Of a DNA stretch of 21,008 nucleotides, positions 26 to 11,958 are shown in pieces. The notes beneath the pieces were generated by a model. The model made no database searches. It had not been told where the DNA came from and worked only from the letters and a program-made list of their open reading frames with translations. Source of the stretch: a virus (lineage: Duplodnaviria; Heunggongvirae; Uroviricota; Caudoviricetes); IMG/VR virus record IMGVR_UViG_2671180458_000004. One strand, 5' to 3'. A program made the position numbers and the translations under genes. The number at the start of each line of letters is the position of its first letter. The first letter of the stretch is position 1.

Positions 26-586
26 TTACAGTTCCTCCGGCGGTTCGACCGCCGTTGTCGTGTTCCCCGGCAAATCAATATGTGCCTCAAACGGCGGCGT
101 ACCGGGCGGCTCCACAAAGGTTTCGTAATGACGCAGGAAGTCGTCCAGCGAGCTGATATCGGTCAGCGGTGCGATCATTTCCTCGCAGGAGAAATAAAGC
201 GCATACATCACCGCACCACTGTCCGCCTGGGTTTCGGTGTAACCGTTGACCGCCTTTTCAAAGTAAAGCGGTGAGGTTTTTTCTGTTCTGAAGCCGTTAA
301 GTACGGCGATCAGCCGGGCCACAATCTGATACAGTCCGGGACGGCTGGCCTCACGCCCGTTGAGCATGTCGCCGATGACGTAGAACACCCAGTGACTGAC
401 CAGGCGACCACGGGTACGGCCTTCACCGGCACCCAGCCAGGCAACGTAGATCGCCGGGGCGTTAATCAGCATGGTGCGCAGTACGCTGTCGCTCCAGTCG
501 CCGGGATGCGTGTCAACAGACACCAGTTCATTCCCGAAATACTCACGGATACGGGCGATGTATGCCTGTTCGGTTTCCGTAATCAT
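26..586 (-). CDS. Mu gp37-like protein (DUF1834-type)
   Basis: 186 aa; ATGA-coupled to the upstream gene; follows the gp36-like gene as in Mu. Confidence 0.8.
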   Translation of the reverse strand: MITETEQAYIARIREYFGNELVSVDTHPGDWSDSVLRTMLINAPAIYVAWLGAGEGRTRGRLVSHWVFYVIGDMLNGREASRPGLYQIVARLIAVLNGFRTEKTSPLYFEKAVNGYTETQADSGAVMYALYFSCEEMIAPLTDISSLDDFLRHYETFVEPPGTPPFEAHIDLPGNTTTAVEPPEEL

Positions 587-1002
587 ATGAAGCCCTTCTG
601 GTTGCGCCCGAATACCGCTGCATCAGACTGAACCTGTGGTAAATCCCCGGATTCAGGGGCCGCACCGTTCGTATCCACACCGACCGGCACATTGCCGTTC
701 ATGACATCTTTCAGCCAGGCCAGCGCCTCACGGTAACGGTCACGCGCCTGATCGGAGGCTCGCTGATCGCACAGGTAATAAAAGGCAATCGCACAACAGT
801 GCTGAACAAGAACAGCCGGGATAACCTCCAGCGGCAGCGTGTAACGGGCGGACAGATAGCTGTCGATAAGGGCTGACGCATCTGTCAGCGCCCGGTTCAG
901 CTTGCGCGTGTCCGGCTCATCCGAACGGGGCACAGCCAGTAACGGCCTGAGCAAATCCTCGCGGTAACGCGCCCGCATATCGGTTTCAGTGGCGTAATTC
1001 AT
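583..1002 (-). CDS. Mu gp36-like protein (DUF1320-type)
   Basis: 139 aa; ATGA overlaps at both ends; position after the T-proximal head genes. Confidence 0.8.
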   Translation of the reverse strand: MNYATETDMRARYREDLLRPLLAVPRSDEPDTRKLNRALTDASALIDSYLSARYTLPLEVIPAVLVQHCCAIAFYYLCDQRASDQARDRYREALAWLKDVMNGNVPVGVDTNGAAPESGDLPQVQSDAAVFGRNQKGFI

Positions 1003-1370
1003 GCGCGGGCCTTTTTCGCCTGTTTCGCTTTGTTACCGGTCTTTTTCCGGGGAGCATCCTGTCCGGCTTCGGCTTCGGCTTCGGCTTCGGCTAAATCTGT
1101 ACCGGCCACTGCATGAACCACACCCGCCACGCTCCCCGCATCATCAGCAGGCGTCTGTAGTATTCGCACAGTGAGGCATGGCTCCGCCTCCAGTCGGGCA
1201 AGCTGCTCCGGGGTGACCTCAACCTGCTGACGTCCACGCGTGAACAGGAACCCCGCACGACGAAACGCCGAACGACTGCAACGCACTTCTGCCAGCACCG
1301 TGACAGAATTGTCACCACTGACCTGAAGACCTGAATCATCTGTTGCTGCCACAGTGTGATGTTCATTCAT
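999..1370 (-). CDS. Hypothetical head-region protein (123 aa) with internal (EA)n repeat and lysine-rich C-terminus
   Basis: GGAGGG about 5 nt upstream; encodes AEAEAEAEA from a hexanucleotide repeat; C-terminal KKTGNKAKQAKKARA; occupies the slot after T. Confidence 0.7.
   Translation of the reverse strand: MNEHHTVAATDDSGLQVSGDNSVTVLAEVRCSRSAFRRAGFLFTRGRQQVEVTPEQLARLEAEPCLTVRILQTPADDAGSVAGVVHAVAGTDLAEAEAEAEAGQDAPRKKTGNKAKQAKKARA
1065..1092. repeat. Tandem hexanucleotide repeat (GGCTTC) about 4.7 copies, in-frame within CDS 999..1370
   Basis: Plus strand reads GGCTTCGGCTTCGGCTTCGGCTTCGGCT; the minus-strand codons GCC GAA repeated encode Ala-Glu. Confidence 0.85.
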
Positions 1371-1413: not shown

Positions 1414-2361
1414 TTACAGATAATCCGCGACAACCAGCTCCAGCTTGCCCTTCATCTCGTTAGAGACGGTTGCGTTTCCGTCTGCGAACAGTTCACGCTC
1501 CAGCAACTGCACCGCCTGTTTTTCCAGCGAGGTGGGGACAACAATATGGGTGGGTTTAATGCCGAGTTTGCGGCCACCGTCAGCGGTAAATTCGCGCATG
1601 GCTGACCAGCCGTGCCACAGTGCATCCAGCGTCAGCGGTGACTGCATCATGTAGGCCATCTGCCAGAAGCCGTAGCCCACATTGCGACGGGCGGATGCAC
1701 CAAACACAAATTCGTTATCGGTGAATGCGCGACCTTCATCGACTTTGGTCTGGGCAACCAGTTCAGCCTTACGGCGATCCTGATAAATCAGCGGTTTTAC
1801 CGCGCGTGAACAGTCAAGCAGATACCAGGCCGGACCGCTGTAATCCGCCTGTGCGCCGACAGAGCCGGTTTTTGCCACAAACATATTGCTGACCATCTGC
1901 GCATCCCCGGAGCCATCCACTTTGGGGTAAACCGGATGTTCGGTATCAAAGAAGTTCTGACCGTCATAGCAGGCCGCACTGATCCCGTCACGCAGGGCAG
2001 CAAAGACCAGCTCATCCGGTTGTACCGCCGCAGCGCGCCCCATCTCCTGAAACAACGGGGAATAAATACCGAGGTTGTCGTCTTCGAAGTCATCGCGGCT
2101 AATGGCGACAGTGCCTTCAAAAGTTTTGTTCACGATGGCATAGCCATAGGCTTTCATCTTCTCGATGACGCGGGAGCCGATCCACTCACGGAACTGCGGG
2201 AACTGCCCCAGCCAGCCGTAGGTGTTGGATTTCGAGGTGGAGGGCACGGTCATCGCAATTTTTTTGTACTGCGACGGGGCCATGGACATCCCGGCCTGAA
2301 AATCAGAACGGTAGCCCGTCATCAGGGCGGTGATCATCGCCGGTGTAATCGGGGTAGGCAT
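1414..2361 (-). CDS. T: Major capsid protein (Mu T/gp34-like)
   Basis: 315 aa, close to Mu T (about 305 aa); AGAGGAAA RBS; follows I as in Mu. Confidence 0.9.
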   Translation of the reverse strand: MPTPITPAMITALMTGYRSDFQAGMSMAPSQYKKIAMTVPSTSKSNTYGWLGQFPQFREWIGSRVIEKMKAYGYAIVNKTFEGTVAISRDDFEDDNLGIYSPLFQEMGRAAAVQPDELVFAALRDGISAACYDGQNFFDTEHPVYPKVDGSGDAQMVSNMFVAKTGSVGAQADYSGPAWYLLDCSRAVKPLIYQDRRKAELVAQTKVDEGRAFTDNEFVFGASARRNVGYGFWQMAYMMQSPLTLDALWHGWSAMREFTADGGRKLGIKPTHIVVPTSLEKQAVQLLERELFADGNATVSNEMKGKLELVVADYL

Positions 2362-3494
2362 TATTGCATTTCCTCTTTCATTTTCAGGAACTCGGCTTCG
2401 GTTTTACCCAGCAGATGGGCAGCGGCGATATCTTCAGCCGACAGCGCAGCGGTGGCAGTCTTTTTATCCGGCACGGTCACGGTGTCGGTCTGAAGGCCGG
2501 TCAGGGCCGCAACCGGCTGTCGGGCGTCAAGCTGTGCAGAAAGTGCCGCAACACCAATCTGCCCACCCAGTTGTTCCAGATAGCCGCGTTCGCTTTTGAA
2601 GATGCGCCCTTCGGATTCAGCCTTGTCCAGCACCTGCTCCAGTGTGGTGCTGCCGTGCTGTGCCGACAGCGCAACGTATTCGGTACGCAGGGCGTTATAC
2701 GTTTCAACGGGCACGTATTTCGTCAGATCAATACTGCCTCCAGCCGGTGTGCCTTTTGCGGTTTCCAGCTCTGCCGACAGACTGGCGACCTGTGTTTTCA
2801 GGTTGTCGTGTGCATCCGCACGGGTTTTGATCCCGGTGAGTGCAGACAGCGCCGCCGTGCCCAGCTCCGGCGTAAATTCGTCACCGTCAGCCACGGTCAG
2901 ACCGAGCGCCGTCAGCAACTGGCGTAATTGCTCATTCATGGGGTGTTGCTCCTGAGAAGGGGAAACTACATAGAGATCGTCAGCACTGAGTGCTGCGACA
3001 GGGTTCATACCCGTAATACCTGGATCATTCGTCAGGGAAGCCATGCGCAACAGGTAGGGTTCCCCGGTGTCAGCGAAATAATGCATATACGCAGACAGAT
3101 AGGCATATTCACGGTCATCAATATGTTTTTGGGCCTGCGGCGTCCATTCAGGTTTAATGAAAATCCCCTGACCCTCACGCCATTCGATGTTTTCCGGCTT
3201 AACCCAACCTGCGGCAATGGCCTTAAATCCGTTTTTCTGCGCATTCATGGAGTGATGGTCATAATCAATCAGTAACGGCTGATTCAGGGCGGAAAGCCCG
3301 GCTTTCATCCGGTTGCAGGCGGATTCGTTAATCAGCCAGCCTTCAGCCGGTTTTTCCGGGCGACCGTCACGGGCCTTTACCCTGCCTGCTGGCAGTAACT
3401 GACACCATCCGTCGCCGGATGCAGTCAGCGAAGCTGAAAGCACGGCTAAACCAGAGGGGCGATTTGCGTCTTTTGGGTGATTTTCTGTCTTCAT
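2361..3494 (-). CDS. I: Mu I-like head protease/scaffold protein (gp32-like)
   Basis: 377 aa; stop overlaps the T start (TAATG); no clear SD at the listed start, so the true start may differ. Confidence 0.85.
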   Translation of the reverse strand: MKTENHPKDANRPSGLAVLSASLTASGDGWCQLLPAGRVKARDGRPEKPAEGWLINESACNRMKAGLSALNQPLLIDYDHHSMNAQKNGFKAIAAGWVKPENIEWREGQGIFIKPEWTPQAQKHIDDREYAYLSAYMHYFADTGEPYLLRMASLTNDPGITGMNPVAALSADDLYVVSPSQEQHPMNEQLRQLLTALGLTVADGDEFTPELGTAALSALTGIKTRADAHDNLKTQVASLSAELETAKGTPAGGSIDLTKYVPVETYNALRTEYVALSAQHGSTTLEQVLDKAESEGRIFKSERGYLEQLGGQIGVAALSAQLDARQPVAALTGLQTDTVTVPDKKTATAALSAEDIAAAHLLGKTEAEFLKMKEEMQ

Positions 3495-3669
3495 ACCGGC
3501 AGCATAAGCCGGGAATTTTCAGGGCGGGTTTTGCGGGATTTCAGGAAGTATTTTCAGGGAAAAATGCAAAGGCGCTTCACGCAGATTTTAAAGCCCGTTA
3601 AATACAGGTTAGAAAATCACGACACGCGCCTGAAGGGGGTAAGGTAATGCATTTGCATACCTTAAACAA
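3495..3669 (-). promoter_or_regulatory. Candidate late promoter region upstream of I, with three direct TTTCAGG repeats
   Basis: 175-bp ORF-free gap; TTTCAGG on the plus strand at 3517-3523, 3539-3545 and 3552-3558; short inverted repeat ATGCA-TT-TGCAT at 3647-3658; position corresponds to Mu late promoter P_I. Confidence 0.4.
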
Positions 3670-4143
3670 TTAAGGCGTTTCTGTGGCCTTTTTAAAGCGT
3701 TTTCTGATTTCGTCCATGATCTCCTGCTCTGCCACCTGATCAAAGCCCATATACGGGCGTGCACCAATGGCCGCCGGTCCCGGTGGCATACCGGGCAGGC
3801 CACCCCACTGATGAATGGCCGCATAAGGCTCATTTGATCCAATCAGCGCCCAGGTGTCGCCATAATCCGTGGTCAGGCGTCGGGCCAGATCGCCGTTCAG
3901 CGTCAGGATTTTGCCGGGCATGTATCCCTTACGGGTACGCCACTTGCGGTAAGGATCTGACCAGTCATGCCAGCGTTCGCCGTCCGGCTCTTTTTCCTGT
4001 TCAAACGCCATTTCTGAGGATGACAGAAGGCTGGACGCCACACTGCGGGCCAGGTCTTTTCCGCCACCCACAAACTGAAGCCGGGCAAAGACCCGCTGGA
4101 GACGCGTAACGTCAACAACGACAGCGGCATCAATGGATGACAT
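3670..4143 (-). CDS. G: Mu G-like virion morphogenesis protein (gp31-like)
   Basis: 157 aa, the size of Mu G; GGAGG about 5 nt upstream of the ATG. Confidence 0.85.
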   Translation of the reverse strand: MSSIDAAVVVDVTRLQRVFARLQFVGGGKDLARSVASSLLSSSEMAFEQEKEPDGERWHDWSDPYRKWRTRKGYMPGKILTLNGDLARRLTTDYGDTWALIGSNEPYAAIHQWGGLPGMPPGPAAIGARPYMGFDQVAEQEIMDEIRKRFKKATETP

Positions 4144-9416: not shown

Positions 9417-9707
9417 TTACCCCCTTGCGCGTGGTTTCTTCACACCCGGAACGCAGGCCCGGCCTTCCGCCACATCCTGCCCCCGGCCGGTCAGCTCTGC
9501 GATGAAATAACCGTTAATCAGAACGCGTTTGCGCACCAGTCCCTGCTCGGCAAGCCAGGCAATGTGGGTGTGAACGGTGTCGCGGGACACGCGGTGGCCG
9601 TAATCATCCAGACAGTCCTGGAGCACGGATTCACCCAGTTCACCGTTGTAATCTGCCAGCGACCGCAGAATGACCAGACGCTGATCTTCAGTAATGAAAT
9701 CACTCAT
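9417..9707 (-). CDS. Mu gp26-like small protein (96 aa), possible winged-helix fold
   Basis: Position between the gp25-like gene and terminase; ATGA coupling at its start; assignment positional. Confidence 0.6.
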   Translation of the reverse strand: MSDFITEDQRLVILRSLADYNGELGESVLQDCLDDYGHRVSRDTVHTHIAWLAEQGLVRKRVLINGYFIAELTGRGQDVAEGRACVPGVKKPRARG

Positions 9708-11396: not shown

Positions 11397-11467
11397 TGTT
11401 ACGCTGTCTCATGATGTTCTCTGAGTCAGCGTAACGGTGAAGGAAAGGCGGCAGGCTTTGCGGAATA
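11397..11467 (-). promoter_or_regulatory. Candidate activator-dependent late promoter / 5' leader of lys, with a 9-bp inverted repeat
   Basis: 71-bp gap between the mor stop and lys ATG; perfect inverted repeat GTTACGCTG (11398-11406) / CAGCGTAAC (11427-11435), 20-bp spacer, left arm abutting the lys start; position analogous to Mu Plys. Confidence 0.4.
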
Positions 11468-11893
11468 TCAGAAAAGTGGCGGTTGCGTTCTTGCCAGATG
11501 CAGACGGCGCTGTTCGCGTATGACGGTATAAATCTGGGTTTCTGACATCCGGTAATGGCGGCGAAGGGATTCAATTTTCTCGCCCCGGTCCCAGCGCGAA
11601 AATATCTCATTGTTTCGCAGCTCGGCAAAGAGAGATTCCCCGACCGGCAGGTAATAACCCCGTCCGCCCATATAGGCTGCCTGAGCCGCAGCCACCTTGC
11701 GTGCCAGTTTACCGGCCAGTACCGGCTCAATCCCCTGACGCTGAAGTTCTGCGCCAGTGACTTCAACCAGTTCTGACAGGGTCCGCGGCCAGTTCTTTTT
11801 GAGAACATCATCAGGGATGTCATCAAGGCGGTCGATAAGGGCGTGCAGTTGCTCACTGTCACCACCAAACATGCTCATCTGAGTTTCTGCCAT
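11468..11893 (-). CDS. mor: Mor/C-family transcriptional activator (middle/late gene activator)
   Basis: 141 aa, the size of Mu Mor (129 aa) and C (140 aa); GGAGG about 6 nt upstream; located between gemA and lys. Confidence 0.85.
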   Translation of the reverse strand: MAETQMSMFGGDSEQLHALIDRLDDIPDDVLKKNWPRTLSELVEVTGAELQRQGIEPVLAGKLARKVAAAQAAYMGGRGYYLPVGESLFAELRNNEIFSRWDRGEKIESLRRHYRMSETQIYTVIREQRRLHLARTQPPLF

Positions 11894-11925: not shown

Positions 11926-11958
11926 TTAAAATAAAAATCCCGCGTTGTGGCGGGATTT
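11926..11958 (-). terminator. Rho-independent terminator/attenuator between gemA and mor
   Basis: Perfect 9-bp stem AAATCCCGC/GCGGGATTT (11935-11943 with 11950-11958) around a 6-nt loop; on the minus strand it is followed by TTTTATTTT; begins 4 nt after the gemA stop. Confidence 0.7.

Follow-up and report, generated by a model that had tools for sequence, protein, structure and literature searches.

The closest described systems come from bacteriophage Mu, where two of them lie in the gap between genes G and I. The first is the central strong gyrase site (SGS), which is needed for efficient replicative transposition. In the Mu RefSeq record, the gyrase cut site is annotated inside this gap, 20 nt past the stop codon of G. 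The 133-bp Mu SGS fragment of gyrase binding assays is centered on the cut site and extends ~45 nt into G. According to a review (PMC10052514), the right arm of the SGS is essential for Mu replication and the left arm is dispensable. The same review, citing Oram and Pato (2004), describes the SGS of the Sakai Mu-like prophage as the one foreign site that could stand in for the SGS of Mu in replication. The second system is P_I, one of the C-dependent late promoters of Mu (P_lys, P_I, P_P, and P_mom) (Margolin, Rao and Howe 1989; Chiang and Howe 1993; PMC2582627; PMC4461284). The Mor and C sites in Mu occupy positions -52..-34, are centered at -43.5, and overlap the -35 region. In Mu-like phages of Pseudomonas, the junction between G and I reportedly carries inserted anti-CRISPR or other accessory genes.

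We analyzed a stretch of viral DNA of 21,008 nt (referred to here as the window), in which all long open reading frames (ORFs) lie on the minus strand. The G-I junction is to be read on this strand, where the plus-strand heptamer TTTCAGG becomes CCTGAAA. A Mu-like phage inserted in Stx-converting phages matches the window at 97% identity, and Mu, D108, and SfMu are distant relatives of the window. Judged by its sequence, the host element is a Mu-like transposable Escherichia coli prophage of the O157 Sp18 type, Sp18 itself being located in the genome of E. coli O157:H7 Sakai (L047). The window covers part of the prophage, and full copies are 97% identical to it (e.g., L008; 39,968 bp). G-I regions 88 to 100% identical to that of the window were present in 228 of 5,426 complete E. 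coli genomes, and some of these copies had moved into Shiga-toxin phages.

The original prediction of a gene-free gap of 175 nt between G and I (3495..3669) was borne out, both by the Pfam matches that anchor G and I (Table 1) and by an ORF comparison with relatives. Sakai Sp18 is 100% identical to the gap in the 103 nt nearest G (3669..3567), and all seven differences between the two are I proximal. We consider it likely that the gap is a composite cis-acting region made up of the central strong gyrase site and the late promoter of I. Its contents are ordinary and largely already known.

Table 1. Features of the G-I gap and of related loci (window coordinates unless another sequence is named)
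Feature	Coordinates	Strand	Remarks
G (virion morphogenesis)	3670..4143	-	Pfam Phage_tail_S, 1e-33
Imperfect 23-nt palindrome AAGGTATGCAAATGCATTACCTT	3663..3641	-	Starts 7 nt past G stop; contains ATGCA-TT-TGCAT as its inner part
Right arm of the predicted SGS	3567..3640	-	Highly conserved noncoding block with A/T tracts
A/T tracts of the right arm	ATTTTCTAA 3617..3609; TATTTAA 3604..3598; TTTAAAAT 3592..3585	-	Spaced 13 and 12 nt
A/T-rich stretch ATTTTTCCCTG	3555..3565	-	Upstream of the box; overlaps the first four bases of the distal CCTGAAA
Distal CCTGAAA copy	3552..3558	-	Not conserved; CCTGGAA or CCTGTCA in relatives
Middle CCTGAAA copy	3545..3539	-	Inside the conserved activator box
Putative activator box TTCCTGAAATCCCGCAAAACCCGCC	3523..3547	-	For a C-type late activator; ~-53 to -29 from the predicted start
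Proximal CCTGAAA copy	3517..3523	-	In the spacer between box and -10; poorly conserved
Inverted repeat CCGGC-TTATGCT-GCCGG	3496..3512	-	Encloses the -10; ends 1 nt before the ATG
Predicted -10, TATGCT	3501..3506	-	23 nt from CCGCAAA, spacing as for TACGCT at the lysozyme promoter
I (protease/scaffold)	2361..3494	-	Pfam Mu-like_Pro, 4e-89
Lysozyme (P_lys-like) box TTTCTGATATTCCGCAAAGCCTGCC	11450..11474	-	-10 TACGCT at 11433..11428
Mor/C-family activator gene	11468..11893	-	Pfam Mor, 2.8e-32; sole such gene in the window
Third box CTGAATTAACGCAAA, then 22 nt, then TATGAT	L008 4742..4797; Sakai L047 35363..35377	- (L008); + (L047)	Outside the window

Elsewhere in the element, a tRNA-like element was detected in the F-G gap on the plus strand, antisense to the phage genes (4184..4263; Rfam tRNA, 31.0 bits against a gathering score of 29; E value, 4e-5). 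Its acceptor, D, and T arms fit the model, and its anticodon-arm region is oversized (24 nt versus 18 nt in the model). ARAGORN made no call there, and in E. coli relatives this position carries the PGAP annotation "tRNA-OTHER". The modification module at the right end differs between copies. L008 has a C-5 cytosine methylase (242..1294, minus strand), whereas at the right-end position that com and mom occupy in Mu, Sakai Sp18 (L047 38705..39596) has genes annotated as encoding a transcriptional regulator and a DNA modification protein.

The late promoter very probably resides in the I-proximal ~70 nt of the gap. The original prediction had placed the gap at the position of Mu P_I, and this was correct: the published Mu P_I oligonucleotide maps into the Mu G-I gap, specifically into its I-proximal part, with the start 21 nt before the I ATG. 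The putative activator box in front of I is identical at 20 of 25 positions to a box in front of the lysozyme gene, which is its best non-self match in the window (0 of 1,000 shuffles reached the score), and the two boxes stand at the same distance from TAyGCT. Relatives with an activator of only 84% identity still have the lysozyme box, and its flanks have diverged in them. A third box, with two mismatches, was found in both the full prophage and Sakai in the intergenic region after a Gin-like invertase gene and upstream of a 680-aa SASA-esterase/DUF6645 gene (i.e., at the position of Mu P_mom). The late-promoter box consensus for the Sp18 group is TTnCTGAwwTnmCGCAAA, followed after 22 to 23 nt by TAnGmT. 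The shorter motif CCGCAAA alone was set aside as too common to be informative.

Orthologous -10 hexamers read TAAGCT, TACGAT, CACACT, or GACAAT, with A2 and T6 always kept, and this is the pattern expected of a -10 element. A consensus scan of the gap returned no complete sigma-70 promoter and no -35 element, which fits dependence on an activator. What close relatives conserve in the I-proximal region is precisely the box and CCCGGCyTATGCTGCCGG. The contigs L033 to L039 keep the box (TTACTGATTTACCGCAAACCCAC) and the hexamer at the same spacing, with a wholly different spacer. The A/T-rich stretch upstream of the box is a candidate alpha-CTD or UP-like contact; the L033-L037 group retains CATTTT(T)CCCTG and has lost the rest of the distal repeat. 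By inspection, the box shows no clear dyad symmetry, and only a weak activator-site dyad (TnTG-N8-CAnA) can be recognized in CTGAAATCCCGCAAA and CTGATATTCCGCAAA, where no inverted repeat was called.

Both the I and the lysozyme promoters are presumably driven by the product of the Mor/C-family gene, the immediate upstream neighbor of the lysozyme gene. This protein has 39% identity to Mu C and 27% to Mu Mor. Neither a separate Mor gene nor an obvious middle promoter for the activator gene was seen in the window. A terminator-like hairpin (AAATCCCGC-cacaac-GCGGGATTT, then TTATTTT; ~11958..11927, minus strand) was noted between the GemA-like and the C-like activator genes, directly upstream of the latter.

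The predicted I promoter shares with the Mu late promoters a -10 without a -35 and an upstream box that overlaps the -35 region and is common to the late promoters of the same phage. The position of the C-like gene just upstream of lys, as well as the promoters at the lys, I, and postinvertase positions, is likewise as in Mu. Numbered with TATGCT at -12..-7, the box covers ~-53..-29, which is where the Mor and C sites of Mu are found (-52..-34). The core of the box (AAATCCCGCA) resembles Mu P_lys (TAATCCCGCA), whereas the box overall is unlike that of Mu, (c)ATAACCCC, and stands ~6 to 7 bp farther from the -10 than in Mu P_lys (homology ATAATCCCGCA versus GAAATCCCGCA). Also unlike Mu, the window holds a single Mor/C-family gene, and no fourth box analogous to P_P was found at up to three mismatches or with a three-site weight matrix. 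The Sp18-type late-promoter box fits as a new example of a Mu-type C-dependent late promoter. We propose that the box would be bound by the single C-type activator of the phage, that the I-proximal ~70 nt with their -10 and no -35 would drive the head-gene operon, and that the same box would drive the lysozyme operon.

The same region contains the three exact TTTCAGG copies on which the original prediction had focused, and a sequence check recovered them (plus-strand positions 3517, 3539, and 3552; spacings of 22 and 13 nt). On the gene strand, the CCTGAAA copies lie 23 to 64 nt upstream of the I ATG. The heptamer TTTCAGG is enriched across the whole window (11 copies versus 3.3 expected). The triple repeat alone is only marginal because some 7-mer occurred three or more times in 346 of 5,000 dinucleotide shuffles of the gap (7%). 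It is unlikely, in our assessment, that the whole gap is P_I and that the three repeats are reiterated Mor/C activator sites. The repeats are real and phased at 13 and 22 nt, the middle copy lies inside the box common to the lysozyme promoter, and a cryo-EM preprint describes the Mu C tetramer bound over nearly three helical turns, all of which speak for such an arrangement. However, most relatives lack the distal and proximal copies: of 22 distinct close relatives, six kept all three copies and nine had none. The distal copy overlaps the conserved ATTTTTCCCTG stretch with its first four bases and varies in the others; the proximal copy reads CCCAAAA or CCCGAAA in relatives and is missing from the diverged contigs. 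The outer copies are also missing in diverged phages that retain the box and the -10, and the proximal copy would fall in the spacer, at ~-29..-23. Moreover, the lysozyme and postinvertase promoters carry one box, not three heptamers, and the best-conserved 100 nt of the gap would be left unaccounted for.

The triple direct repeat thus fails as a functional unit, its distal and proximal copies being unconserved even among E. coli relatives. The expectation that the repeat would recur at other late genes held for the conserved 25-nt box, which recurs upstream of lysozyme, but not for the heptamer itself. Together with CGCAAAA, the CCTGAAA copies form A-tracts ~12 bp apart, which are not conserved and which may add bendability. 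The three copies are best seen as forming no functional unit, with the repeat a lineage-specific by-product, beside a single-box late promoter for I.

By reading the gap as the P_I region alone, the original prediction had missed its best-conserved feature, the G-proximal ~100 nt, which appear to be the counterpart of the Mu SGS. These ~100 nt, together with the end of G, are most likely the central strong gyrase site of the phage. The block resembles the Mu SGS in its intergenic location between G and I, in its start just past the G stop, and in its central position in the prophage. Measured from the c end, the site lies at 48.0% in L008, 47.2% in Sakai Sp18, and 48.7% in Mu, the central position being taken from full 97%-identical copies, of which the window corresponds to a part. 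Aligned without gaps at an equal distance (42 nt) from the G stop, the window and Mu gaps agree at 27 of 34 positions, a score that none of 500 shuffles reached, and the common segment reads CGCG..CG.GATTTT..AACC.GTATTTAACGG. The Mu bases matched by the window fall inside the 133-bp Mu SGS fragment. This right-arm similarity is significant only in the syntenic pairwise comparison and is too short for database-wide blastn: at an E value of ≤10, a blastn search of the gap against the phage database did not recover Mu and returned two near-identical Mu-like inserts plus chance hits. By analogy with the extent of the Mu fragment, the last ~45 nt of the window G would be the left arm of the gyrase-bound segment.

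We examined the variation among the 22 distinct relatives. In the right arm (3635..3566), only 5 of 70 columns were variable, compared with 56 of 141 third codon positions in the adjacent genes (24 of 76 in G and 32 of 65 in I; P = 3e-7). The right arm is under purifying selection as noncoding DNA. Variation in the adjacent G is restricted nearly to third positions (1, 1, and 24 variable columns of 76 by codon position), and the 5' part of I (3300..3494; ~65 codons) is unusually variable among close relatives at each of the three codon positions (25, 17, and 32 of 65 columns). In the palindrome region, 8 of 34 columns were variable. This difference between arm and core parallels the genetic results for Mu, where function depends on the right arm and changes in the core and left arm are tolerated. 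Tracts resembling TTTTTGAAA occur right after G in diverged Mu-like contigs whose G is 61 to 74% identical, at spacings of ~21, 13, and 11 to 12 nt. The first A/T tract of the Mu arm (ATTTTTTAAAA) is degenerate in the window (CCCTTCAGG).

The short inverted repeat ATGCA-TT-TGCAT of the original prediction is present (3648..3659), but it sits at the predicted gyrase cleavage core, outside the promoter that it had been assigned to. The cleavage core is predicted near 3650, within the palindrome, because the two gaps align in register and the Mu cut is found 20 nt past the end of G. In relatives, the inner part of the palindrome varies and the outer 6 to 7 bp are kept. The core here differs from that of Mu, which has no such palindrome.

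Two candidate signatures of the site were tried and dropped. A periodicity of ~12 bp in W-W dinucleotides (P of ~0.002 over 3635..3495; P = 0.11 for the arm alone) was abandoned since the Mu site itself was not significant. Counting matches to the published 133-nt gyrase consensus, by exact base or by G/C versus A/T class, failed its Mu positive control: the Mu SGS did not come out highest in the 12.5-kb region that contains it.

A report of about twenty years ago already described the gyrase site of this sequence family; the fragment tested from Sakai was probably this G-I gap. For Mu, the mechanism by which the site brings the prophage ends together is established, and we infer that it applies to the window site as well. 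Gyrase would cut near 3650, inside the palindrome, and the conserved right arm with its phased A/T tracts would be wrapped round the GyrA C-terminal domain, allowing processive supercoiling. Supercoiling would then extrude a loop with the gyrase site at its apex, so that the prophage ends could meet for transpososome assembly and replicative transposition.

We also considered whether the G-proximal block is a different cis element, i.e., a 3'-end or terminator hairpin of the lys-G RNA or a site for a nucleoid protein or packaging factor. The palindrome does fold as RNA (-10.0 kcal/mol) with its outer stem kept in relatives, but no U-tract follows the hairpin, no intrinsic terminator was called on the gene strand in the gap, and the gap had no Rfam match. 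Conservation, furthermore, peaks in the arm (5/70 variable) and not in the hairpin (8/34). The stretch matching Mu is short and the gyrase role of the window block comes from homology, which leaves some room for another function; yet Mu has the downstream arm in common, in register, without having the palindrome, and the identical Sakai sequence is reported to act as an SGS. We regard a different cis element as quite unlikely and retain the gyrase site as the reading of the G-proximal block.

That the gap conceals a small protein or sRNA gene (cargo, e.g., an anti-CRISPR) is extremely improbable: it does contain possible ORFs of 23, 56, and 60 aa, and a diverged contig has 676 nt with a 117-aa reverse-strand ORF at this junction, but the 23-aa ORF (the only one on the gene strand) has a TTG start that is lost in relatives, the plus-strand 56- and 60-aa ORFs are broken by 1-nt indels in relatives, the variation falls in conserved blocks without codon periodicity, and an Rfam search of the gap was empty. 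The view that the gap is regulatory rather than cargo was supported: no ORF survives in relatives, and the conserved blocks are noncoding. In this respect, the window gap, which is without a credible ORF, differs from the same junction in the Pseudomonas Mu-like phages. In the diverged contig (L040), the ORF (2159..2512, reverse strand) has a hydrophobic N terminus, and the insertion separates the gyrase-site arm from the I promoter, both of which are intact. To judge from this contig, the G-I junction can take cargo without disruption of the flanking arm or promoter.

The distance between the predicted -10 and the I ATG is 6 nt in the window, L039, and L040 and 7 nt in L033 to L037, and no Shine-Dalgarno sequence precedes the ATG. 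The I ATG and its reading frame are kept in all lineages, whose length changes are all in frame. The predicted transcription start is the A of the I ATG (3494) or a position within 1 nt of it, which suggests that the I mRNA is leaderless. Such an mRNA would be unusual. We found no transcription-start mapping for Sp18 in the literature. Mu I differs in having a 20-nt leader with a Shine-Dalgarno sequence, its start being 21 nt upstream of the ATG. A known leaderless phage mRNA is that of lambda cI transcribed from P_RM. The I transcript would resemble it in its predicted start on the A of the start codon and in the absence of a Shine-Dalgarno sequence. It differs in that cI is a repressor gene and I heads a late structural operon, and in that the start here is predicted from the conserved distance of 6 to 7 nt.

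The -10 is enclosed by an inverted repeat (Table 1) that would fold as RNA with a minimum free energy of -9.5 kcal/mol, the second lowest of 50 gene starts in the prophage. The same architecture recurs with different stems in L033 to L040 and in Mu (L001, ~9525..9548). The stems are CCGGC/GCCGG, TGACCGCC/GGCGGTCA, or TCCCCC/GGGGGA, depending on the lineage, and CTGCTCA/TGAGCAG in Mu. The hairpin ends 1 to 4 nt before the start codon in the Sp18-type lineages and 9 nt before it in Mu. The -10 is ~150 bp from the predicted gyrase site, which would be among the strongest known. It is conceivable, if doubtful, that the I late promoter is supercoiling gated and leaderless, with the -10 in the loop of a covarying inverted repeat and the start exactly at the AUG. 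If so, supercoiling by the gyrase site, or a hairpin in read-through lys-G RNA, would link the expression of the head genes to the state of prophage replication, and I would be translated solely from the leaderless late transcript.

With the G-proximal block read as the gyrase site, the most conserved noncoding DNA of this prophage would be a site for joining its ends and not a repeat-based promoter. Sp18-type elements, including the copies in Shiga-toxin phages, very likely keep a functional replication-enhancing site.
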